Part shown: piece by piece, positions 27,401-63,235 of the stretch
How positions within the stretch are numbered: the stretch's first letter is position 1
Layout of the letters: each line of letters opens with the position of its first letter
DNA from: a virus
Lineage: Duplodnaviria; Caudoviricetes
Length of the DNA stretch: 64,000 bases
Strand: one strand, 5' to 3'
Virus record (IMG/VR): IMGVR_UViG_3300042892_002922
Coordinates: 128,001-192,000 of that record
Notes under the pieces: model-generated
What the model was told of the DNA's origin: nothing
The model's database searches: none
The model's input: the letters and a program-made list of their open reading frames with translations, nothing else
Program-made: the position numbers and the translations under genes

Positions 27401-30400
27401 AAGATTGTCGACTTAAAAGTGATGTTTACATTACAATTAGCGGAGCCACTAGAAATCAAGACGATGTAACTTCTTGGCCGGTTAACATATTTTATGATTG
27501 CGGAGAAAATGCCGAGAATTTCAACGAGAATATTAGTGGTTTAGAAATTCAACAAATTATTGGTGAGCCATGTATGTTTATCATACCAGACGTTTACGAA
27601 GATGGGGATATTGATGGTAATCCAATTGAATTATTATTTACAGACGCAGCAAACTGCGAACAAAAAATAAAAATTGAAGGTCTACAACTTAAAGTAGAGC
27701 ACGATCCATATCCACTAGGATATGGTAGATCACATACACAATTCTTTGAGTTAATTGGTACAAAAGACGCTTTAGTTTTATCAACAATGTCAGGTGTTAC
27801 TTTTTGTGACAACTACACTGGTTACACAATACAACCAAAAGTTCAATATCGCGAAACATTTAATTATGGTATTAAGCACGGGTCAATTGTGTTATCAGGT
27901 GCAACTGGTTTGATAAATGTTTCAGATAAATCAGCAGTTGACGCTGCGATTACCGCTGGTACCTTGATTAAAACTGAAATAGAAAATATAAGACCCGGTG
28001 ATTATATATTATCCGCAGATTTTAATCCATGCCCATTTGCCACAACAGATTTTAGAAACGTGGCAACAAATGGATACTCATTTAGTTTTACATATAAACT
28101 AATTCAAATAACAAATAAAGATTGTTTGGGTTCAGTTAAGAAGCATTTAATTAACAACCAATTTGAAGTTTTACCAACAACAGAATTAAGAATTTTGCGT
28201 GATGGTAATTTCACAAGTGCGTTTCCAGAAGATTTATTATTAAAAGAAACACCACCAGAAGAACCTTGTTGTGATGTTAATGCATCATATTATGACGGAT
28301 ACGCTGGGGATATGTTATTAGATCAGCTTGGTTTCCCAATTGAAGTTGAAACTGTTGAATTAGATTATTGCTCAAGAAGTATATTCTATCACTTGAACTG
28401 GAACGGTACAGGTGATGTGGTTCTTTTTAATGGTGACAATAACAAACAAATCTTATTATCATTCACACAAAATAAATTTGTTTCATTAAACTTTGATTTA
28501 GAACAATTATATGTAAATGGTTCTAACACAAACTATTTCCCTAGAGAAATGGGTATTGAGGATTGTGATAACACACCAGTTGTTGAATGTGGTGAAGTGT
28601 ATGTTGCACAAACAAGAACACCTACACCTACACCTACATTAACACCTACGGTAACACCAACAAAGACGCCAACAAGTACACCAACAAGTACGCCTACTCA
28701 AACTTTAACTAGCACACCAACTAGTACACCAACTAATACACCTACACTAGGTGTTACAAATACACCAACACAAACTGTAACTAGTACACCAACTAATACG
28801 CCTACGTTAACGTTAACGTCTACACCTACTTTAACACCAACTTTAACACCAACAAATACACCAACGTTAACCTTAACCGCTACACAAACACCTACGGCAA
28901 CAATTGAGTGTGATTTTAGTATTCAATATGTTGTAAATACTCCAACACCAACACCTACATCAACACAAACATTAACACCAACTAATACGCCTACGTTAAC
29001 GTTAACGTCTACACCAACCAATACCCCAACATTAACACCAACAGCGACTGTTGATTGTGATTTCGCAATTCAATACGTTGTTAATACACCAACGCCTACA
29101 CCAACTCAAACTTTAACTCAAACTCCGACGTTAACAGAAACGCCTACGAATACCCCAACATTAACGTTGACTAGTACACCTACAGAGACACCAACTCAAA
29201 CACCTACGTTAACACCTACGGCAACAATTGAGTGTGACTTTAGTATTCAATATGTTGTAAATACTCCAACACCAACACCTACACAAACCTTAACAACAAC
29301 ACCTACACAAACCCCAACTAATACTCCAACGGCAACCGTTGATTGTAATTTTGATTTTGATGTAATTGTTAACACACCAACACCTACACCGACTAGCACC
29401 CCAACTAATACTCCAACGTTAACACCAACTGAAACACCAACTAGCACTCCGACCAATACTCCGACTTTAACACCAACAGAGACACCTACATTAACACCGA
29501 CAGAGACGCCTACATTAACACCGACAGAGACGCCTACATTAACACCGACAGAGACACCTACATTAACACCAACACCGACTGTTGATTGTGATTTCGCAAT
29601 TCAATACGTTGTTAATACACCAACGCCTACACCTACACCAACTTTAACTGAAACTCCAACAAATACACCTACGTTAACCCCAACGGCTACTGTAGATTGT
29701 GCTTTTGATTTCGATGTAATTGTTAACACACCAACACCTACACCAACTAGCACCCCAACTAATACACCAACGTTAACTCCAACAGAGACACCGACTGAAA
29801 CGCCAACTAACACACCAACAGAGACACCAACAGAGACACCAACAGAGACACCTACTAATACGCCAACGTTAACACCTACACCGACTGTTGATTGTGACTT
29901 TAGTATACAATATATTGTTAATGACCCAACACCTACACCTACACCAACATTAACAGAAACACCGACTAATACACCTACAGAGACGCCAACATCAACACCT
30001 ACTGAAACACCTACATTAACCCCAACTAATACACCTACAGTAACTGTTGATTGTACTTTTGATTTTAATGTAATTGTTAATACCCCAACACCGACTCCAA
30101 CATCTACACCAACTAATACACCAACGTTAACTCCAACAGAGACACCGACTGAAACACCAACTAGTACTCCTACGTTAACGCCAACAGAGACACCTACTGA
30201 AACACCAACTAACACTCCGACACTAACGCCTACGCCAACAATTGATTGTGATTTCGCGATTCAATATATTGTTAACGACCCAACACCTACGCCTACATCA
30301 ACTCAAACGTTAACACCAACATTAACTGCAACACCAACTAATACACCTACATTAACATTAACGTCTACCCCAACGCCTACATTAGATTGTACATTTGAGG

Positions 30401-31152
30401 CATCATTCACTGAAATGATTGATGAAACACCAGGTGAAGGTGCACCGTGTTCTTCAGGTATGGATGTGGTATTCTTAGTTGATTATACAGGAAGTATGGG
30501 TAGCGCTATTAATGGAGTTAAATCATCAATTGCATCAATTGCAAGTACAATTCAAACAGAATCTAATAATAATTACAGATTAGGATTGGTTATTTTTGAT
30601 GAATATGGTGCGAGCAGTAATCCAAACTACAATAATGATTCAGGTTATTCATCATTACCTAGTGGTCAAAAATATATTAATATAAATTCCGTAGCAAATA
30701 GAAAACAAGTAATTACTGCAATGGAAAAAATGAGTACAAATAATATTTCGTCATTTACTACTCAATTAAATAAAATAAACAATGGAACATTTAGTATTGG
30801 TTCTGGGGGAGGTTCTCCCGAACCTAGTGATATGGGTGTTGATTTAGTTGCAACAAGTGATAAATCGGGGTATGAATATTTTGCCGGCACATTTAGAAGT
30901 AATGTATCTAAATTAATAATTTTAATTACAGACGCTCAACCAGGTGGTGACGATGACGCTTACAGTGCTACCGATGTTACATATGTTAATAGTTTAATAA
31001 CACCATTGTATAATCAAAATATTAAAGTGTTATTAATGACAACGGCACCTAATAACGTATTATATGACTTGGCAACTGGTACAAATGGTGCAACATATAG
31101 TGGATTTAGTGGGGCAAACATAATAACAGCAATACAAAACATATGTCCTTAA
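24448..31152 (+). CDS. Giant baseplate-anchored adhesin: wedge (P2 gpI/gp7-like) region, Thr/Pro-repeat stalk and C-terminal vWA domain
   Basis: [20 protein letters not shown] wedge motif, about 590 aa of TPT repeats, and [12 protein letters not shown] plus [10 protein letters not shown] vWA/MIDAS motifs. Confidence 0.75.
28615..30390 (+). repeat. Coding low-complexity (ACN-CCN) Thr/Pro repeat tract with 10 interspersed Cys modules
   Basis: Direct reading: TPT repeats separated by [IV][DE]C[DN]F[SA]IQY[VI]VN or VDCxFDFxVIVN modules. Confidence 0.95.
29476..29571 (+). repeat. Near-perfect 24 bp tandem repeat x4 (TETPTLTP)
   Basis: ACAGAGACRCCTACATTAACACCR repeated four times. Confidence 0.9.
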
Positions 31153-31165
31153 TATAGAATAAAAA

Positions 31166-33088
31166 ATGGCAAAAAAATATCACATATTAATAACAGGAGG
31201 CACTTCACAAGGACCGTATACGGTATATTATGATAGTGTAAATGTTTCTAATATTGCAACTTTATTTTCAAATAGTAATCCTGCTACGAATTTATCATAT
31301 AGTGATTTAACGACTAGTCCAGGAGTTTTAGTGTCGATGCCAGATTCTATTACAACAATAATTTTATATAACGATAGTTGTAATTCGGACATTACTTATA
31401 TTTTACCTACACCAATCCCAACACAAACACCAACTAATACACCTACAGAGACCCCAACAGCAACACCTACACCAACATTAACAGAAACACCGACAGCGAC
31501 ACCTACACCTACATTAACAGAAACACCGACAAACACACCTACGTTAACACCTACAGCAACAATTGATTGTGACTTTAGCATTCAATACGTTGTTAATACT
31601 GCAACACCAACACCTACACCTACACCTACATTAACACCTACGAATACGCCTACATTAACGTTGACAAGCACACCTACAGAGACGCCAACATCAACACCTA
31701 CTGAAACACCTACGTTAACCCCGACTGAAACACCTACGAATACGCCTACATTAACGTTGACAAGCACACCTACTAATACCCCAACTATTGATTGTAATTT
31801 TGCAATTCAATACGTTGTTAATACTGCAACACCAACACCAACTCCGACACCAACGTTAACACCTACGAATACACCTACATTAACGTTGACAAGTACACCT
31901 ACGGAAACACCAACAAACACACCTACAAACACACCTACATTAACCGCAACTAATACACCAACATTAACACCTACGCTAACACCTACGTTAACACCTACGG
32001 AAACACCAACAAACACACCAACATTAACTTTAACTAGTACACCTACTAATACACCAACTATTGACTGTAATTTCGCAATTCAATATGTTGTTAACACACC
32101 TACACCAACTCCGACACAAACTTTAACAGCTACACCAACATTAACACCTACTAATACTAATACACCTACTCAAACTTTAACTAGTACACCTACATTAACT
32201 GCAACTAATACACCAACATTAACATCAACTAATACACCTACGTTAACGTTGACAAACACGCCTACATTAACATCAACACCTACTAACACACCAACACAAA
32301 CTTTAACTAGTACACCTACTAATACACCAACTATTGACTGTAATTTCGCAATTCAATATGTTGTTAACACACCTACACCAACTCCGACACCAACATTAAC
32401 TGCAACAAGTACACCTACATTAACCGCAACTAATACACCAACATTAACTGCAACAAGTACACCTACATTAACTGCAACTAATACACCTACGTTAACATCA
32501 ACGCCTACTAACACACCAACACAAACATCAACAAACACACCTACATTAACCGCAACAAACACGCCTACACAAACATCAACAAGTACACCTACATTAACAG
32601 CGACAAACACACCTACGTTAACATCAACACCTACTAATACGCCAACGTTAACCTTAACGTCAACGCCAACACCTACACCAACAACAACAGCTTATCTAGG
32701 TTATTACAACTGTGGATACGGTTGTGAATATTACTCAACACCACCAGTTGGATGTATTGAGTGTAATCCAAACGCAACAGATGTTGTAATTAGTGCTTGT
32801 GTAATGGCTGGTGGTAATAATAGTACAACGGTACAAGTAAATTCCGATGTTTCGGTGAACACAAATGTTACCGTTGATGTGAGAATAATTGGTGATTTAG
32901 GTACTGATACCGCGCATACTATAACAATACTTAATGGTTATTTTTGTGCTAGTACTGTAAATGGACCAGCTTTACAAAATTATGAAATCATAACCGATGC
33001 TTGGATTATGGACGTAAACCCAGCATCAAACGGTTCACAAAACTACATAATTGGATTAGTTGCATTAAATAGTTGTTTTGGATGCTAA
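31166..33088 (+). CDS. Thr/Pro-repeat virion appendage protein with a Cys-rich C-terminal domain
   Basis: About 430 aa of TPT repeats with 4 IDC[DN]F[SA]IQYVVN modules, and a C-terminus containing YYNCGYGC and CIEC. Confidence 0.75.
31405..32690 (+). repeat. Coding Thr/Pro repeat tract
   Basis: Direct reading of the sequence. Confidence 0.95.
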
Positions 33089-34861: not shown

Positions 34862-36004
34862 ATGGGTGTTTCAATAAGATTAATTAATATTAGTGGGTCA
34901 ACATCGTATAGCGTGGCGTATTCAACCTCGCCATACGGTTCATTTACAACAGCTCTTACAGGTACGACATCCACAGCAACAATTAGTGGTGCCCCATTTG
35001 AATTCGACACGCAATATTATATTAAACTGACAGATTTGGTTACAAATAGATATATTATTGAAAATATATATATTCACGATAGTAAAGCATACCCATTATA
35101 TGATACAATTGATTTTGATTTAAGTGCTTCATGTGTTCCACCACCATTAACACCAACAGCAACACCTACTTTAACATTAACACAAACACCTACACAAACA
35201 TTAACTGCTAGTATTGGGTTAACACCAACAGCGACACCTACTTTAACATTAACGCAAACACCTACGGCTAGTTTGGCTGAACCATTGCCAGGTTGTGGTG
35301 ATACATTGACAGGAACTTATATTCCAACAGGTTTTACGATTCAAACACAAGCATTAGATTTATCTGAAGCTACTGATGAATCAATAATAAGTGTTGGGTA
35401 CGTTGCGTATGATAGACCAAATAGATTTAATATTTACGGAAATGGGATGTTAATTGAGGATAGCGGATGGGTAGGTGCGGATAACACATATTTTGGACCA
35501 TGGGGAACTGCGGGAAGTTTAACAGATCCAGATGGTACCGGTTCGTTCACATTTACATATCAAAGTGGAATGTCTTATGAATTACGTGTTGACGTTGGTC
35601 CGGCGAATCCACTTGCCGATCCGGCTTATCCTTCTGATGGATGGTCGGTTACATTTACTTGTTTAGGATCACCAACACCAACTCCGACACCGACACTGAC
35701 AGCATCACTTGGTCAATGTTACACATATCGTGTTGCACAAGCTGCGCCTGTTAGCACAACAGAATATGGTATAAGATACAGATATCCTGGATCACTTTCA
35801 ACTGACAATCGCCTCGAAACTTTGTATCAAGGGATAGCAACAATTGAGGGTGTTGATTATTTCACATATTCAATATGTAGTTCGGAGGAACCAACGTGGC
35901 TTGCGATGACAACCCCTAGTTCGGGAACTGGTACGACAGTTCCAAATGGTGTTTATAGATTCGGGCCATTAGGAGGATGTAGTGGTAATCCAGAATGTAT
36001 ATAA
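34862..36004 (+). CDS. Virion appendage protein with short TPT linkers
   Basis: Has its own TATTTAT. Beta-rich domains separated by TPTATPT linkers; YDRPNRFNIY motif. Confidence 0.6.
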   Translation: MGVSIRLINISGSTSYSVAYSTSPYGSFTTALTGTTSTATISGAPFEFDTQYYIKLTDLVTNRYIIENIYIHDSKAYPLYDTIDFDLSASCVPPPLTPTATPTLTLTQTPTQTLTASIGLTPTATPTLTLTQTPTASLAEPLPGCGDTLTGTYIPTGFTIQTQALDLSEATDESIISVGYVAYDRPNRFNIYGNGMLIEDSGWVGADNTYFGPWGTAGSLTDPDGTGSFTFTYQSGMSYELRVDVGPANPLADPAYPSDGWSVTFTCLGSPTPTPTPTLTASLGQCYTYRVAQAAPVSTTEYGIRYRYPGSLSTDNRLETLYQGIATIEGVDYFTYSICSSEEPTWLAMTTPSSGTGTTVPNGVYRFGPLGGCSGNPECI

Positions 36005-36016
36005 TATTTATTAATA

Positions 36017-36307
36017 ATGGCAACATATAATATAACAATATCGAATATAAGCGGAAGCACAACACCGTGTAGTGTTTATAACATTTATACCGGAACTACT
36101 TGGGAAACAATACCAACAACACCGCTTTTTTCTGATGTTGCCATACCATTAAATGGAAAAACATTTCAAATAATATATTCTGGCGCATCAAAATATGTTT
36201 GTGTTTTTGTTGAACATTGCGATGACCATATAACACCAGTACCAAATGCAACGCCTAAAAAACAGGGGGGATATCAAATAAGATTAGTGGAATTAATTCC
36301 ATGTTAA
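36017..36307 (+). CDS. Small virion protein
   Basis: 96 aa ORF after TATTTAT. Confidence 0.65.
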   Translation: MATYNITISNISGSTTPCSVYNIYTGTTWETIPTTPLFSDVAIPLNGKTFQIIYSGASKYVCVFVEHCDDHITPVPNATPKKQGGYQIRLVELIPC

Positions 36308-36317
36308 AGATAAATAA

Positions 36318-37823
36318 ATGGCTAAAGGAGTAACAATAAATTTTACAATAGATTCGGATCATTCACAATCAAATTTTCCTCAATATGTTTATACTGGGTT
36401 AACTGCTGATAATGTGACTGGAACTACAATATGTAATGGGATAACCGCTAGCAGTTGTGCTTTAACAGGTTTAAGCGACACTTTAACACAAGTTTATGTA
36501 AAGATTAATTGCAATGGTTGTGACGACCAAATATTTTTGGTTTCATTAGTAGACCCAACACCAACAGCTACACCAACACCAACTTTAACAGCGACAGCTA
36601 CAAATACACCAACAAGTACACCTACTCAAACACCTACAAACACAACAACCGAAGGTGCGACCCCAACGGCCACGCCAACATTAACGCTAACAGCTACACC
36701 GACAAATACAACATCATCGGTTATAGACCCAACTCAAACAAGTACACCAACTCAAACACCGACAAATACTCAAACAAGCACACCAAGTGCAACATATGTT
36801 TACTATAAACTAAGACCTTGTGAGTATCAAGGATTTACTGGATATTTGGATGGCGATTATGATGTTTGGTCATATTCATTAGTTTCTGGAACATTTAGTA
36901 GTGGTGACAGAGTTGAAGGTAGTGCGAGTTACTATTATGTTGTTATGGGTTCTCAAATGGCAACTACTGACCCAACAGGTGGCGGTACGAAATATACCGT
37001 ATATGCTGTTGAGGGTGAAACAGGTTGTCCGGCACCACCACCATCAGCAACATTAAGAACGGCATATTTAACAGCGGCGTGGGCACATGATGGTTCAGTG
37101 GGTTATATACAACAATTAGCAGATACATGTGGATTATACCCATACCAAGCATCGTCATTGGGGTATACAGGTTTAACACAAGGTGGATCAACATCTTTCT
37201 ATGTTAATGAGGCGTCAATTGTACCAGGAACAATATACACATTATATGATTCAAATATAAGTGGTGGTGGTAATGTTGTAAATGGTGGTGACAAGTACTA
37301 CTCAATATTAATATATGGTAGTGGAAGTACATTCAACTATGTTGTTCGTATAAGTAGTTCGGGAGAATTAAGTGAATGGAATTATTGTACCACACCAACA
37401 CAAACACCAACTCCAACACCAACATTAACAGCAACACCGACATTAACACCTAGTGCGGCCGGGGCACCGGGGTCAGCATGTATTCAAATAACAGAATATT
37501 CTTCACAAGGTACCACTGAATGTTTATCTAATACTGTACCATATTTCTATACCGTTATTACAGCATTATTAACTGATGGTAATGGTAATGCAATGAATGC
37601 TGTTGGTGATGTATATGCCTATGTTAATGTTACGGTAGATGTCCTTTACCAGCAGGAAAATACATATGAATATCCAATTGAAATAAGTAGTGGAACAAGT
37701 TCGGGCACGCTTACCATTGATACATCAGTACCTGTAGATAATGGACAAGGTAATTGTGAAAATGAAACAAGAGTAATAAATTCTTATAGTGCACAAGTCG
37801 GATATAGTATATGCGCACCTTAA
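36318..37823 (+). CDS. Virion appendage protein with TPT linkers and Cys-rich domains
   Basis: TPT tracts, YYKLRPC, CNGCDD and GNCENET motifs. Confidence 0.65.
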
Positions 37824-37854
37824 TGATAAAAATAAAAAAAGATATTTATAACAT

Positions 37855-39957
37855 ATGAGCTTTTTAAACAGTAATAATTCAGAATTTTTAACAGCAAGAA
37901 TTACCCAAAAAGGTAGAAAATCTATCGCTGAGGGTAATTTTGTAATAAGTTATTTCCAAATAGGTGATTCTGAATTTGATTACAACTTCACAGGATTCAC
38001 TGGGAATGGTGTAACACCACATCAAAAAGTGTTGGCGCCAATGGATAAAGATGCTCAAGTAAAGTATCCATATAAATTAACATCATCTGAAAGTTTAACA
38101 TACGGTAACCCAATAAAACAAAATACGTTAGATACAATTAAAAATGTTATGGGACCGGCAGGTTTCGTTTCAGATTACGTTGAATATGATTCAGTGGATT
38201 GTACTGGAACAACAATTGCATGTGAGATACAAGAAATATCGTTATCACAAGTTGATGGTACTAATTTATTAACAGTTTTAACTGGTGCAACATACAATGG
38301 TTGTGAATATGTCACAATTCTTTTTAACAGTAGAACCTGCGGTGAGATACCAACATTAACTGGTGAAACAAATAGTTTGGTTTATAAAATTACAGGTATA
38401 ACGGGTAATGAATTAGCGTTTGATAGAATTATGCCAAACTTCTCATCATTAAGTGGTTACGCACAAGTGATATGTCACAATTGTGATGTTGAGTTTGGGT
38501 CTGATACTACAGCAACAACTGTTTGTTCACCATCACCCGTAGATCCATCAGCAGCACATGATCCATGGAGAATGGAAATCGTTTGGACAGAAAAACCAGC
38601 AGGATTAAATGCATCAAATGAAAGTTTAACAGGATATACTGGGACACAATACGCATCAACAAAAGAATATTTAGGATATAATAGTATATCAGGTCAAACA
38701 TTTACAAATTTTACTGGAGGAACACTATCAACACCAACAACATTTGTTAATTCATTTGGTGAAGAAGTTAATGTTAAACCAGAAGACCAAAGAGTAATAG
38801 CAATATTACATTACTCAGAATTAGGAGATTCGGTTAACGACCCTGAAAGATTTTTTAAATACGATGATTACATCGCATCTGAAACTGAAGATGATATTTT
38901 AAGTTTCGAAGTGTACATTCCGTTTATGTTATATCATAGAAATACTGGTACCACTATTGGTGCAGTGTTTACTATGGATGAAACAAATTATTATGTAACA
39001 TCAAGTAAGAACGATAAACCAAATACTAATAATGTTGTATTCAGATATCTTTTAGATGAACAAGGTTATAAAGTTGGTAAAGTTTTCACAGGTAAAAAGA
39101 TAATAGTATTTGATGACCAAGAAATTATAGCAGCATTAGAATACAAATCAAATAGAAGATTCACACTACCTTCACCAAGAGTTAGTGCAGTTCCGGTGGA
39201 TTTACCATGTACTGTTGGGGATCAGCCAATGATAACAAGTGGTGAAACAGCATATATCACATATGAATTAGAACTAACAGGAAATACAGCATTAAGTGGG
39301 ATACATTGTAATTACTATAATAGTGTTACTGGTATATCTGTGAATGCATCAATTAAATTCAATACTGATGATTTCAAGTATATGAATAATAATGCCAATT
39401 TAGTTGGTAGCACCAGCGGATTTAGAGCAAATAAGTTTAAAGCATTAGTTCAAATAGTTTCAGGAAGTACACAACCAGAATCAGATTCTTGGACTGTAAT
39501 AGATTTAACAGACCAAATACCTAACCACACAGTTGGTAGTTTAATTGATCCTGATAATTTATGTGACTATCAGTTTGTTATCGGTCAAGATATGTTAGAT
39601 GGTGGTTCTTTATATTCAATCGGAACAAATACGTCAACAACAGATAATTTAATTGGTTATCAACCAACATTAACTAGCGGTGATGCTACACTTCCACAAT
39701 TTGGTGATAGTCAACCATTTCCAGGTAGTGTTAAGTTAACCAGAGCATCTGATTTAGAGGTTATGACGTTTATGATTAACCTACCGTCATCACAATTCAC
39801 ACAAACTCAGAATCCTACGTATATTTCTGGTGCAACTAAAAGAATTACAGAGGTAGCATTACTAGACGCAAGTAAAAATGTATTGGCGATGTCAAAAACA
39901 GCTAAACCAGTTATAAGGTCTGGAGTACAAGTTTTTGCACTAAAAATTGATTTTTAA
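37855..39957 (+). CDS. Baseplate/tail structural protein
   Basis: N-terminal TARITQKGRKSIAEG..ISYFQIGDSE and C-terminal ITEVALLD...LAMSK.AKP resemble wedge and fibre-attachment proteins. Preceded by TATTTAT. Confidence 0.65.
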   Translation: MSFLNSNNSEFLTARITQKGRKSIAEGNFVISYFQIGDSEFDYNFTGFTGNGVTPHQKVLAPMDKDAQVKYPYKLTSSESLTYGNPIKQNTLDTIKNVMGPAGFVSDYVEYDSVDCTGTTIACEIQEISLSQVDGTNLLTVLTGATYNGCEYVTILFNSRTCGEIPTLTGETNSLVYKITGITGNELAFDRIMPNFSSLSGYAQVICHNCDVEFGSDTTATTVCSPSPVDPSAAHDPWRMEIVWTEKPAGLNASNESLTGYTGTQYASTKEYLGYNSISGQTFTNFTGGTLSTPTTFVNSFGEEVNVKPEDQRVIAILHYSELGDSVNDPERFFKYDDYIASETEDDILSFEVYIPFMLYHRNTGTTIGAVFTMDETNYYVTSSKNDKPNTNNVVFRYLLDEQGYKVGKVFTGKKIIVFDDQEIIAALEYKSNRRFTLPSPRVSAVPVDLPCTVGDQPMITSGETAYITYELELTGNTALSGIHCNYYNSVTGISVNASIKFNTDDFKYMNNNANLVGSTSGFRANKFKALVQIVSGSTQPESDSWTVIDLTDQIPNHTVGSLIDPDNLCDYQFVIGQDMLDGGSLYSIGTNTSTTDNLIGYQPTLTSGDATLPQFGDSQPFPGSVKLTRASDLEVMTFMINLPSSQFTQTQNPTYISGATKRITEVALLDASKNVLAMSKTAKPVIRSGVQVFALKIDF

Positions 39958-39994
39958 CCATTTACATTTTTAATATCTATAGTTATTCTTGTTT

Positions 39995-40591
39995 ATGGAA
40001 ACAAAATTCAAAAACAAATCTAAAATTTTAGGATTAGATATCTCAACCAAAACTATTGGTTGGGCACTATTCGATTTAGCCGGTAAGAAGTTGTTAGAGT
40101 TAACACATTTCTCACCAAAGGTTAAACCCCTACCAGAAGACAAATTAGAGGAATTAATGAAAAAAGCGGATGCTTTCAAGAAACAACTTGAGGGTTATCG
40201 TGATATGGGTATTGTTAAAGTTATCATTGAAGAACCATTATTAAATTCTAATAATATCTACACAGTAGGTACATTATTAAGATATAACACAATGATTTGC
40301 AAGATAGTATACGATATTTTGGGTATTGTTCCGACATTTATTTCCACATATAATGCAAGAAAATTTGCGTTCCCAGATTTAGTTGGTCCAAATGATAAAG
40401 GTAGAAATGTTCTATTTGGCGGTTATCCTAAAGATATTGATAAGAAACATGTGGTTTGGGAACACGTAAACGCTGTTTGCCCAGAAGTTACTTGGTTATA
40501 TGGTAAAACCGGTTCATTAAGAAAAGAAAACTATGATATGAGTGATGCTGCAACAGCGGTAATCGGCTATATTAACATGTTAAAAGAATAA
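39995..40591 (+). CDS. ruvC: RuvC-like Holliday junction resolvase
   Basis: ILGLDIST.TIGWA, VIIEEP and YDMSDA catalytic motifs; located next to the primase. Confidence 0.8.
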   Translation: METKFKNKSKILGLDISTKTIGWALFDLAGKKLLELTHFSPKVKPLPEDKLEELMKKADAFKKQLEGYRDMGIVKVIIEEPLLNSNNIYTVGTLLRYNTMICKIVYDILGIVPTFISTYNARKFAFPDLVGPNDKGRNVLFGGYPKDIDKKHVVWEHVNAVCPEVTWLYGKTGSLRKENYDMSDAATAVIGYINMLKE

Positions 40592-40636
40592 GGCAACTAG
40601 TATTTTGTTATTAATTATTAATAGCGTATATTAGTA
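40592..40636 (+). promoter_or_regulatory. Bacteroidota-type promoter (TTTG-N19-TATATTAG) with an upstream GGCAAC box
   Basis: TTTG at 40604-40607 and TATATTAG at 40627-40634; a near-identical architecture occurs at 43840-43884. Confidence 0.6.
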
Positions 40637-40639
40637 TAC

Positions 40640-40716
40640 AATACAGCAAATCGGGTGCACAGAAATGTACATCTGGTTGGTGTTCCCCTGGGGTGGTGTC
40701 CAGGGGATTTTTTTTT
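40640..40716 (+). ncRNA. Candidate stand-alone small RNA (~77 nt)
   Basis: GC-rich island with no ORF, lying between a promoter and an intrinsic terminator; 12 bp hairpin closed by a GAAA tetraloop. Confidence 0.55.
40684..40716 (+). terminator. Rho-independent terminator
   Basis: TCCCCTGG/CCAGGGGA perfect 8 bp stem followed by 9 T. Confidence 0.85.
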
Positions 40717-40743
40717 CTCACATATTTTACATATATTAGGCAT

Positions 40744-41682
40744 ATGCCGGAAACCGAAATCGACTATTCAGCTATTGTTGACCTTTTAGAGGACATATTG
40801 GGAGAACCACATATGCACAATGACTATAGGTGTCAAATATCTTTTGACTGCCCTGTCTGCTCGTATGAGTTAAAGGGGTTAGATGAAGGGGATGGTAAGG
40901 GTAATTTAGAAATTAACTATCGTTTTGGGGTTTATAAGTGCTGGGCGTGTAGTGAAACACACGATACTCACGGTGGGCTATATAAGTTAATCAAAAAATA
41001 TGGTCGACCTAAACATACAAAACGTTATGAGTTATTGAGACCAGATGATATTGGTGAATTAAGAAAAGTAACTAAGGTTGCGAGGTTACCAAACGAGTAC
41101 ATTCCATTAAAAGACGCTAGTATGGGTTTAAAATTAACTCATTACTATAAACAGGCGATGAATTATTTACGTAGTAGAAATATTACTGACGAAATGATTG
41201 AAAAATATCGAATAGGATTTGCATACACTGGTTTATACGCTAGTAGAATCATAATCCCATCATATGGGCATGATTTAATGTTAAACTATTTCATTGCCAG
41301 ATCATATGCCCCAAACACTAAATTAAAATATAAAAATCCAGATGTCAGAAAAGAGGATTTGATTTTTAATGAACATTTGCTTGATTGGACTAAACCAATC
41401 AACATTGTTGAGGGCGCATTTGACAGTATATTCGTACCAAACTCAATACCATTACTTGGTAAATTTGTTAGTGAGTTTGTTTTCAATAAGATATATGATA
41501 ACGCAACCGGGATTACGATATTATTAGATGGAGATGCGTGGGAAGATGCACAAAGAGTATATCATAAATTAAATGGCGGTAGATTATTTGGTAAAGTTTG
41601 GATAGTAAAACTAGATATTGATAAAGATATCGCTGACTTACAAGGAAAATTAGAAAATTATAAACCCTTTCAATTAAAGTAA
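40744..41682 (+). CDS. DNA primase (zinc finger plus Toprim)
   Basis: CPVC...YKCWAC zinc finger, RIIIP, YFIAR, IVEGAFD and LLDGDA motifs. Start moved to ATG 40744, just after TATATTAG. Confidence 0.88.
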   Translation: MPETEIDYSAIVDLLEDILGEPHMHNDYRCQISFDCPVCSYELKGLDEGDGKGNLEINYRFGVYKCWACSETHDTHGGLYKLIKKYGRPKHTKRYELLRPDDIGELRKVTKVARLPNEYIPLKDASMGLKLTHYYKQAMNYLRSRNITDEMIEKYRIGFAYTGLYASRIIIPSYGHDLMLNYFIARSYAPNTKLKYKNPDVRKEDLIFNEHLLDWTKPINIVEGAFDSIFVPNSIPLLGKFVSEFVFNKIYDNATGITILLDGDAWEDAQRVYHKLNGGRLFGKVWIVKLDIDKDIADLQGKLENYKPFQLK

Positions 41683-41683
41683 C

Positions 41684-42541
41684 ATGGATTTAAAAGAAAT
41701 CTCGTTAGAGATAAATGAATTATTGACTAAAAGAAGAAATGAATTAGAACTCACCTTTGTTGAGGACAAACACATTTATTATATGAAGGATCTTGATGGT
41801 ATTGTCAGAGATGACTTCCCATCTGTTTCTAGAGTAATTAAAAGATTTCACAAAGCATTTGACGCACCGGCCAAAGCATTAGAAATGTCTAAAGGTGACA
41901 GGACGAAACAACAACAATTATTGGGTGAATGGCGAGCGGCTGGGGACTACTCAACAAATATGGGTAGTCGTGTTCACTATGTTTTAGAGTCGGAGACAAT
42001 CCAACGTTATGGTGGTTATAAAGAGGTTAGAGAACCAATTTTCAATTGTGATGAAAGTCAAATTATTAAAGGCGACAACATGATTAAAGCTGGTAATTCA
42101 TTTTTAGATTTAATGGCTGAACGTGGAGCAGTTCTATTAGATACTGAAATTATTTTAGGTGATAATGAGCTGGGCTATACGGGACAACCAGATAAGGTTT
42201 GGTTAATGATGAATAAGGATAACACCAATTACGGAATCGTAATTACTGATTGGAAAACAAATCAACCAAAAAACTTCGAGGTTCATCATTATACTGGTAA
42301 ATTGTATCCACCATTTAATGATTATCATGATAATGCATTAGGTCATTATTTTTTACAACTACCTCTTTATGTTCGTTTATTGTTAAAAATGTTAAGTGGA
42401 ACAAAATATGCCGATTTAAAATTACTAGGTGGTGTAATTGTATTATTAAAAGACGACGGAACATATGTTGAATATAAGGTACCGCCTGTTATTAGTTCAA
42501 CAATTTTAAGAATGGATTTAAGCAAATACACAAGAAAATGA
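41684..42541 (+). CDS. PD-(D/E)XK exonuclease (Cas4/RecB-like phage family)
   Basis: PSVS, GSRVH, E...GQPDKV, ITDWKT and QLPLY motifs. Confidence 0.8.
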   Translation: MDLKEISLEINELLTKRRNELELTFVEDKHIYYMKDLDGIVRDDFPSVSRVIKRFHKAFDAPAKALEMSKGDRTKQQQLLGEWRAAGDYSTNMGSRVHYVLESETIQRYGGYKEVREPIFNCDESQIIKGDNMIKAGNSFLDLMAERGAVLLDTEIILGDNELGYTGQPDKVWLMMNKDNTNYGIVITDWKTNQPKNFEVHHYTGKLYPPFNDYHDNALGHYFLQLPLYVRLLLKMLSGTKYADLKLLGGVIVLLKDDGTYVEYKVPPVISSTILRMDLSKYTRK

Positions 42542-43839: not shown

Positions 43840-43884
43840 GGCAACGGTTATTTTTTATTATGTGGTAAATAAAGTATATTAGTA
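43840..43884 (+). promoter_or_regulatory. Promoter with GGCAAC box and GTATATTAGTA
   Basis: Same spacing as 40592-40636. Confidence 0.55.
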
Positions 43885-43891
43885 AAAACAT

Positions 43892-44209
43892 ATGAATATG
43901 ACATTATTATTTTTCTGGGCTTTTATGGCTTACGGTATGACAACAATAATTGTTTACGGATCAATATTCGATAAACCTAGGGAGTTCATTAAGAGACACT
44001 CAAAATTTTTTGGAGATCTTGTTGGTTGTATGCTTTGTACATCAACTTGGTGCGGATTTTTCTTATCATTAGTTTTGGGCGGGCTGTCAACTAAAATATT
44101 TGACATTAATTGGATTCCAGCAATATTTTTTGATGGTATGTATACGGCCGGCATCGTCTGGGCTATAAACGGAATAGTTGAATTTTTTGAAGAAAGTAGA
44201 ATAAAATAA
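43892..44209 (+). CDS. Small membrane protein, DUF1360-like
   Basis: Three hydrophobic segments and a DLVGCMLCTSTW CxxC motif. Confidence 0.65.
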   Translation: MNMTLLFFWAFMAYGMTTIIVYGSIFDKPREFIKRHSKFFGDLVGCMLCTSTWCGFFLSLVLGGLSTKIFDINWIPAIFFDGMYTAGIVWAINGIVEFFEESRIK

Positions 44210-62134: not shown

Positions 62135-62170
62135 GTTTCACTTTTCACTTTTTTTCCGTATCTTTAATTT

Positions 62171-63235
62171 ATGAGAAAATTTCCAGTAGAACTAAAAATG
62201 TACGATACAACGTATGGTACGGATATCCCATCAGAACAATTATTTTTACTTTATTTTGATTCTGTGGTCTCAAAAGAGACGGGTAAAGAATATTATAACC
62301 CATTTGTTTTTACGCACTTTACGGAGAATGGTTTTGAAATTGAATGTCGTAATGTTAGAAATCGTAGACATGACACCTATAATGATAATCTTTTAGTACA
62401 CAAGGAAAAAGAGATTATGATTAAGATTTCTAGCTGTTCAGAAAAAGATCCTGACTTATACCAAATAGAGTTTTTCTACAACATTAAAAAGGGTAAAAGG
62501 GATGAGCAATTCTCTTTTTTAGATTTGAAAAAATACGAAAAGAAAAAAATTAAAGCAAACATTTCGTTGGTTAAAAGTGAGATGGGACATTTAGAAACGC
62601 AAGATTATGATTTACCAATACCAGATATTGATTTGGGATTAAACTACGGTAAAGATTTCTTAAAGGTTCACGATGTTATTATTGAAAAGCTAAATAAACC
62701 AAGAGGGAAGGGTATTATTTTATTACATGGTGAACCAGGTACTGGTAAAACATCTTATCTAAAATACATTACTAAGTTAATAACCGAAAAGGATATTTTA
62801 TTTATTCCGCCATCATTAGCTGAAGCGTTGTCTGAACCATCAATCATACCATTCTTAATGGAACATCGTGACAGTATTTTAGTAATTGAAGATGCTGAAC
62901 GCGTAATCTCAGATAGAGAGGGTAATGGTTCTCCGGCCGGTGTGTCTAATGTTTTAAACATAACAGACGGTATTTTGGGTGATTGTTTGAACATTCAAAT
63001 AATTGCAACGTTTAACATGAAAAGAGAACGTATTGACCAAGCATTACTAAGAAAAGGTAGATTAATTGCTGAACATAAATTTGAGAAACTAGCAATTGAG
63101 GATACAAACAATTTATTAAAGCATCTAAAAAAAGATATTGTTTCAGAAGAAGCAATGACACTTGCGGATATATATAATATAGACATCGAACTTATCAAAT
63201 CAACAAATAAAAATACAAGTAAAATAGGATTTTAA
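62171..63235 (+). CDS. AAA+ ATPase
   Basis: Walker A LLHGEPGTGKT, Walker B LVIEDAE, IATFN and DQALLRKGRL motifs. Confidence 0.9.
   Translation: MRKFPVELKMYDTTYGTDIPSEQLFLLYFDSVVSKETGKEYYNPFVFTHFTENGFEIECRNVRNRRHDTYNDNLLVHKEKEIMIKISSCSEKDPDLYQIEFFYNIKKGKRDEQFSFLDLKKYEKKKIKANISLVKSEMGHLETQDYDLPIPDIDLGLNYGKDFLKVHDVIIEKLNKPRGKGIILLHGEPGTGKTSYLKYITKLITEKDILFIPPSLAEALSEPSIIPFLMEHRDSILVIEDAERVISDREGNGSPAGVSNVLNITDGILGDCLNIQIIATFNMKRERIDQALLRKGRLIAEHKFEKLAIEDTNNLLKHLKKDIVSEEAMTLADIYNIDIELIKSTNKNTSKIGF

Follow-up and report, generated by a model that had tools for sequence, protein, structure and literature searches.

The 152-nt gap between a RuvC-like resolvase gene and a DnaG-type DNA primase gene in a 64,000-nt stretch of a Caudoviricetes genome (the window, by which the whole stretch analysed is meant) raises the question of whether a small RNA gene of its own lies there and, if so, how such an RNA might act. 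The window is approximately 32% G+C and has almost all of its genes on the + strand; RuvC, the primase, every gene from 75 to 47518 and the RNA described here are all on this strand. Downstream of the primase follow genes for an exonuclease and then for SbcD- and SbcC-like proteins. The gap contains promoter boxes, two hairpins and a second -7 box. The features are listed below; as P1 and P2 denote both promoters and helices, these are named in full throughout.

39989–40591, + strand: RuvC-like resolvase gene (PHROG 159, E 6e-6), the usual upstream neighbour of the RNA
40592–40597, + strand: GGCAAC box, upstream element of promoter P1, exactly 29 nt before the -7 box and at this fixed spacing in about 33 of 37 variants
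40604–40607, + strand: TTTG, -33 element of promoter P1, 19 nt before the -7 box
40627–40634, + strand: -7 box TATATTAG of promoter P1, of the TAnnTTTG type at 7 of 8 positions
40640–40716, + strand: predicted small RNA of about 77 nt (covariance model R1, 75.9 bits, E 2e-13), its start placed from the -7 box
40643–40683, + strand: helix P1 (hairpin 1) as folded, with a conserved G-U-rich lower stem, a covarying upper stem and a GAAA loop at 40662–40665
40684–40707, + strand: helix P2, the stem of an intrinsic terminator as called by a scan tool, with the invariant loop GUGGUG at 40693–40698
40708–40716, + strand: T9 tract that forms the tail of the terminator and coincides in part with the -33 region of promoter P2
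40732–40739, + strand: -7 box TATATTAG of promoter P2 (that of the primase), separated by 4 nt from the ATG at 40744 and conserved in the family
40744–41682, + strand: DnaG-type DNA primase gene (PHROG 47, E 1e-34), the invariable downstream neighbour of the RNA

Promoters, hairpins and predicted transcript

A preliminary description of this DNA had proposed a TTTG-N19 promoter, a GAAA-capped hairpin and a terminator ending in T9, and all three are present where it placed them. Promoter P1 was marked as a promoter-like site by the scan tool, which also marked the hairpin with T9 as a terminator. The arrangement TTTG-N19-TATATTAG fits the sigma-A promoter type of Bacteroidota, whose consensus is TAnnTTTG at -7 and TTTG at -33 (PMC7366714), and is a predicted promoter of this kind. 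Across the family the -7 box of promoter P1 reads TATATT in 35 of 37 variants and TATACT in the other two, with diverging flanks in an alignment anchored on the box, and TTT(G/C/T) is kept 19–21 nt upstream of it. The conserved layout is GGCAAC-N29-TATATT(T/A). GGCAAC is non-coding in the window, encodes Gly-Asn-stop in L459-type loci and belongs to the terminal MATNV-stop of an inserted 68-aa ORF in L375; since it is kept whatever the reading frame, it represents a DNA signal rather than a coding constraint.

The composite motif GGCAAC-N29-TATATT was found twice in the window against an expectation of 0.02, and in the 200–250 kb contigs of relatives it occurs essentially only at this RNA. The possibility that it defines a wider class of promoters was rejected, as each contig has the motif essentially at this promoter alone. 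TATATT(A/T) is by itself enriched in intergenic DNA, and because this enrichment is seen on both strands it is partly compositional. The second copy in the window, GGCAAC-N29-TATATTAG at 43840–43882, precedes a 105-aa ORF (43892–44209) that showed only weak matches, to phrog_781 and, below its cut-off, to DUF1360. To judge from this shared motif the ORF may be co-regulated with the small RNA. Protein family searches with the 105-aa ORF and with the inserted 68-aa ORF returned nothing informative.

The primase has a promoter of its own, P2, as the preliminary description had also stated for 40732–40739. Its -7 box lies 15 nt past the end of the T run in most members and mostly 4–6 nt before the primase ATG in the family. 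The same geometry, TTGA-N19-TAnnTTT-N4-6-ATG, is found in relatives without the RNA, where it directly follows the RuvC stop codon or a simple terminator. With transcription starting about 6 nt past each box, the RNA would begin at the conserved GGACGGG and the primase mRNA at or beside its ATG, which would make this mRNA leaderless or nearly so. TAnnTTT-type -7 boxes only 4–9 nt before an ATG were observed at many genes of the phage and its relatives, in the window at 40732–40746, 62156–62173, 37839–37857 and 43875–43894 and likewise upstream of the primase in L021–L080; taken at face value, this spacing implies leaderless or near-leaderless mRNAs. In Bacteroides leaderless mRNAs are reported to be rare, with about 3.7% of 5' UTRs being under 10 nt (PMC7366714).

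The RNA is stably folded on prediction. An 81-nt RNA had a folding energy of -32.3 kcal/mol (z = -4.3), and none of 200 shuffled sequences was equally stable. The core of hairpin 1, ATCGGGTGCACA/GAAA/TGTACATCTGGT, spans 40650–40677. The hairpin comprises 12–16 bp under its GAAA cap; the 12 bp given in the preliminary description fell short, as the helix in the fold extends over 40643–40683 with small internal loops. The terminator and its T9 were likewise correctly recognized, with a stem that has 9 bp instead of the 8 reported. Six of these nine pairs are G-C, and stem and T9 together have the form of an intrinsic (Rho-independent) terminator. A 5' extension specific to the window (40634–40652) is 79% complementary over 19 nt to a site within RuvC (40294–40312), which is probably a chance match helped by the palindrome GTATAC.

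Conservation and covariation of the two hairpins

A search of viral contigs based on the primase returned 80 loci. All relatives with a primase at least 63% identical (L002–L017) carry the RNA unit, those at 60–62% identity (L018–L020 and L078) have a different or partial hairpin, and no RNA unit is present at 57% identity or below. Members were gathered using covariance model R1 together with a specific DNA pattern; a first, looser pattern gave chance matches only and was discarded. The viral contigs contained 53 strong matches that represent 30 distinct sequences, and a scan of metagenomes gave at least 27 further matches, including at least about nine new variants. Viral and metagenome contigs together supply at least 37 variants of the unit that are distinct in sequence.

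Across the syntenic resolvase–primase gaps the hairpin of the preliminary description is conserved with compensatory changes, in the 30 distinct relatives as well as in the metagenome variants. Standard pairs made up 96.8% of the pair cells in the 30 distinct sequences, compared with 71% upon shuffling and 34–56% when partners were slid by 1–3 columns. Both sides had changed in 14 of the 19 pairs, and the covariation score was 0.78 versus 0.26. Double changes were found in 6 of the 10 pairs of helix P1 (95.7% of cells paired) and in 8 of the 9 pairs of helix P2 (98.1%). Some lineages have an entirely different terminator stem, with CCCCAGAG/CUCUGGGG exchanged for GGGAGUCAG/CUGGCUCCC in one example, and the loop stays fixed. 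A minimum-energy fold with two hairpins was common to all 35 variants folded (35/35), with a median z of -5.3. Reverse complements were less stable, at -11 to -28 versus -26 to -36 kcal/mol for the + strand, on account of the many G-U pairs. The strand specificity of the fold favours an RNA, and the two-hairpin structure is real and specific to the + strand.

Three segments are near-invariant, namely GGACGGGA, UUUGGUUGG and the terminator loop GUGGUG(U). The extreme 5' end of the RNA is formed by the fixed segment GG(A)CGGGA. UUUGGUUGG, fixed on the 3' side of hairpin 1, makes G-U pairs with the 5' segment around a conserved G-G or G-A mismatch, and the terminator loop (R)GUGGUGU is fixed together with its closing G-C pair. 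Approximately 25 nucleotides are thereby held constant, and both stems are free to drift. Hairpin 1 also varies in its apical loop, for which many members have a GNRA tetraloop and others a U/A-rich loop. A linker of 2–5 nt joins helices P1 and P2, the terminator has 9–12 pairs and U7–9 in all members, and the RNA measures 68–77 nt in relatives when counted from the conserved 5' box. The idea of a G-quadruplex was rejected, as several members do not have four GG tracts.

All members are syntenic, and the end of the RNA lies 27–45 nt from the primase ATG in every one. RuvC is usually directly upstream; several lineages carry 240–880 nt inserted between RuvC and the RNA, and insertions between the RNA and the primase were never seen in any member. 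Four contigs of 199–251 kb have one copy each, and five relatives without the unit have no copy elsewhere. As these contigs are rated 60–75% complete by CheckV, the genome is estimated at about 330 kb, and the phage is a jumbo phage whose host probably belongs to the Bacteroidota. Among 185,579 bacterial and archaeal species, represented by one genome each, no member was found; a pattern scan that required the T tract gave 105 matches, the best at 33 bits. A DNA-level search of GenBank phages gave no match to this locus, the primases closest to that of the window in GenBank phages are only about 33% identical, and the closest one from a cultured phage is that of Flavobacterium phage immuto.

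Candidate roles of the RNA

A little over half of our confidence lies with a stand-alone, trans-acting small RNA that is a single-copy gene of jumbo phages, a reading in which transcription, the RNA ends and action in trans are predictions. The preliminary description had likewise seen a stand-alone small RNA and not simply a primase 5' UTR, and the conserved promoter P1, the covarying helices, the strong terminator and the separate promoter P2 all agree with this; as candidate roles it had named a regulator, a protein decoy and an antitoxin mimic. Transcription would start about 6 nt after the conserved GGCAAC-N29-TATATT(T/A) of promoter P1 and end at the strong intrinsic terminator, releasing an RNA of about 70–77 nt. 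This RNA would form a long, imperfectly paired helix whose conserved, G-U-rich base holds a purine-purine mismatch and whose covarying top is often closed by a GNRA loop, followed after the 2–5 nt linker by the GC-rich terminator hairpin that would display the invariant GUGGUG(U) loop. The primase would be transcribed separately from promoter P2, whose -33 region overlaps the T tract.

With about 25 nucleotides fixed, drifting stems and no conserved complementary target, recognition in trans by a specific partner is indicated. The partner is most likely a protein, and roughly half of the confidence placed in the stand-alone RNA goes to this version, in which a phage or host protein would read the loop and the G-U helix and the RNA would serve as a cofactor, decoy or sponge rather than as a classical antisense RNA. 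A freely covarying stem combined with a fixed loop and a second fixed motif is a signature of protein recognition. The CsrB/RsmZ-type sponges and the boxB-type hairpins of phages resemble this RNA in having a covarying stem, a fixed loop and a second fixed motif nearby, and differ from it in that the motif here is GUGGUG rather than GGA or GNRA-like and the hairpin is present in a single copy. RNA anti-CRISPRs, which are solitary repeat-like RNAs of phages, also have a single structured hairpin RNA encoded between a promoter and a terminator within a phage genome. The stem sequence here, however, differs widely among close relatives, which is not expected of a repeat mimic. It is equally conceivable that the conserved loop seeds a kissing interaction with a host RNA, and the invariable distance to the primase could point to a role in cis.

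A role in cis would make the element a leader of the primase operon, with promoter P1 also feeding the primase and the loop and G-U helix binding a protein or a small ligand that tunes termination at T9, either as a protein-dependent attenuator or as a riboswitch with its aptamer inside the terminator. The constant proximity to the primase despite DNA inserted on the RuvC side is consistent with such a leader, as is the riboswitch-like conservation of about 25 fixed nucleotides; moreover, the A/U-rich, unstructured 27 nt past the terminator would permit translation of a read-through mRNA in Bacteroidota. We nevertheless regard the attenuator as unlikely. Inspection of 30 and of 22 aligned variants revealed no conserved antiterminator pairing, and no competitor covaries with the 5' strand of helix P2, which is rich in either C or G depending on the member. 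The terminator is also very strong, and no riboswitch or leader family of Rfam was matched. Promoter P2, conserved in front of the primase, is of the type that relatives without the RNA have there as well. The HMP-PP (thiS) riboswitch is similar in having conserved nucleotides inside an intrinsic terminator hairpin with a small helix before it. It differs from the present case, in which Rfam gave no match, alternative pairing is lacking and the terminator is followed by a separate promoter.

The Rfam searches covered the window at gathering score and 40450–40900 at E <= 10 with Rfam 15, and gave no match in either; five relatives behaved likewise. The best sub-threshold scores were 27 bits for STnc260 (gathering score 100), 23 for PyrR (54) and 36 for Spot 42 (80), and are due to the hairpin and U tail. 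A faint likeness to the c-di-GMP-I riboswitch that had been noted in the preliminary description was not borne out, as RF01051 gave no match in the window at gathering score, nor even at E <= 10 in 40450–40900. Its statement that the element is unannotated holds, since no family was returned. A search for tRNA- or tmRNA-type RNAs with ARAGORN gave no match, and no description of this RNA was found in literature searches. By its sequence the predicted RNA is a new family, absent from Rfam 15, within the known kind of phage small RNAs that have their own promoter and terminator.

The unit might otherwise be a replication origin or priming element, which we consider quite improbable. Transcription from promoter P1 would then open the DNA beside an A/T-rich stretch, and DNA synthesis would be started with help from the transcript or from the hairpin-bearing, G-rich + strand that is displaced; in a transcription-activated origin of this kind the structured, G-rich RNA would end at the A/T-rich unwinding stretch directly in front of the primase gene and the loop (GTGTC), either on the RNA or on the displaced strand, would recruit primase. 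The invariant loop sequence GTGGTGTC does contain GTGTC, a pentamer recognized by the T7 primase. Furthermore, the unit adjoins the primase gene, is single-copy and has a promoter motif that occurs essentially once per genome, its non-template strand is G-rich, and its tandem promoters followed by an A/T-rich stretch of 27–36 bp recall the primary origin of T7 and the R-loop origins of T4. On the other hand, the opposite strand folds weakly and many G-U (G-T) pairs are conserved, which indicates selection on RNA and not on DNA hairpins. The promoter and the U tract, both conserved, likewise lean towards RNA, though to judge from sequence the + strand might also act as DNA, in the manner of a single-strand priming signal of the G4 ori/ssi type. 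The intrinsic terminator would also release the transcript. Neither a turn in cumulative GC skew nor a switch in gene strand was found in the window at the position of the RNA, and no iterons or other repeats were found around the unit.

A classical base-pairing small RNA, with the G/U-rich loop and linker pairing to C/A-rich sites, is judged to be just as improbable as an origin. The candidate targets would be the start of the putatively leaderless primase mRNA, the Thr-Pro tracts of the giant fibre genes and host mRNAs. In relatives, the RNA pairs better with the first 33 nt of the primase mRNA than with the majority of other windows in the gene (median rank 0.15), and primase codons 2–6 frequently include ACACC; the position of these complementary sites is, however, not conserved, and they are absent from the window. 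Similarly, CACCAAC, the complement of GUUGGUG, occurs 79 times in the window, nearly always in Thr-Pro tracts at 28.6–37.4 kb. GUUGGUG is nevertheless an extension specific to the window, and the core conserved in the family, GGUUGG, has only four complements there, which is the level of chance. The Thr-Pro tracts contained 188 sites for the real linker, 223 for one of ten shuffled queries and 67 on the minus strand, and complements of the terminator loop were not enriched in them. The tracts were rejected as a target, the signal being specific to the window and largely compositional, as a shuffled query exceeded the real linker. Complementarity of the window RNA to all ORF starts was no higher than background, neither the loop complement (ACACCAC) nor a linker complement was conserved within 2.5 kb in the 30 members, and UUUGGUUGG is itself paired inside helix P1. 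As all neighbours are on the same strand, this is not a cis-antisense RNA.

Two known phage systems come close in layout. The OOP RNA of lambda, 77 nt long and antisense to cII, is also a short phage RNA of the replication region with a dedicated promoter, an intrinsic terminator and a size similar to that given by the predicted ends of this RNA. Unlike RNAs of the lambda OOP/P22 Sar type, the present RNA has neighbours on the same strand and no complementary target, and it has no relation to OOP in sequence or in Rfam. The P4 CI and P1/P7 C4 antisense RNAs (RF01695), which control the replication (alpha primase) operon, are likewise small and structured, and mobile elements encode them immediately in front of this operon. 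Those of P4 and P1 pair with nearby seqA/seqC-type sites, whereas here there is no conserved complement within 2.5 kb and no match to RF01695.

It is very improbable that the element is only an elaborate terminator or insulator closing the late unit from fibre to RuvC, with a non-functional upstream promoter and no separate RNA, for although the hairpin with T9 certainly stops transcription arriving from RuvC and terminator-then-promoter junctions are common in the window, the near-invariant -7 box, the conserved -33 element, the GGCAAC box, the covariation of hairpin 1 and the invariant loop would be left unexplained, other terminators of the window having ordinary loops.

Returning to the stand-alone RNA, the family shows a tight link to the replication module of jumbo phages not yet in culture. 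Very large phages of Bacteroidota are abundant in lakes and uncultured, and we know of nothing reported on RNA-level regulation in them. The RNA would offer a small, easily synthesized handle for finding its binding partner and for approaching the control or start of replication in these phages. An RNA with a host protein as its partner would be a new tool of phage takeover, and one that binds the primase or an initiator protein would mark an origin.

Related hairpins, neighbouring sequences and environmental occurrence

The 68-aa ORF lies between RuvC and the RNA promoter at L375:767-973, has equivalents in L204, L389 and L435 and belongs to no known family. In the L375-type lineage the final codons of this ORF share sequence with the conserved GGCAAC box.

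The resolvase–primase gap of another clade (L045, L046, L061 and L068–L074) holds two to three hairpins built on a repeated ATATCG(G/T)T. They lie about 40–130 nt upstream of the primase (locus ~2870–2960), the last one being followed by a T run, and may represent another regulatory or origin-like element at that position. Outside the family, terminator hairpins with an xGUGGUG(U/G) loop after UUGGU were seen in other large viral contigs (at L020:2917-2950, at two sites in L247 and in L264 and L210), and such hairpins also occur in two Bacteroidota MAGs (L300 and L318); hits of this sort are favoured by the search pattern. The Bacteroidota terminators with xGUGGUGU loops were not counted as members because the search pattern itself selects for them.

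The Thr-Pro repeat tracts of the giant fibre genes (28600–32700 and 35100–37400) are C/A-rich, with a GC skew down to -0.35. A long C-rich and G-poor Thr-Pro RNA of this kind would be an ideal loading substrate for Rho if translation stalls.

Contigs of 187–274 nt in two lake/freshwater metatranscriptomes from different studies match the primase and exonuclease genes at 99–100% identity. They map to 40830–41016, 41721–41994 and 42131–42365 of the window; none spans the small RNA, for which they are uninformative either way. The phage or a very close relative is present in those lake/freshwater sources, and it may be transcribed in those waters.
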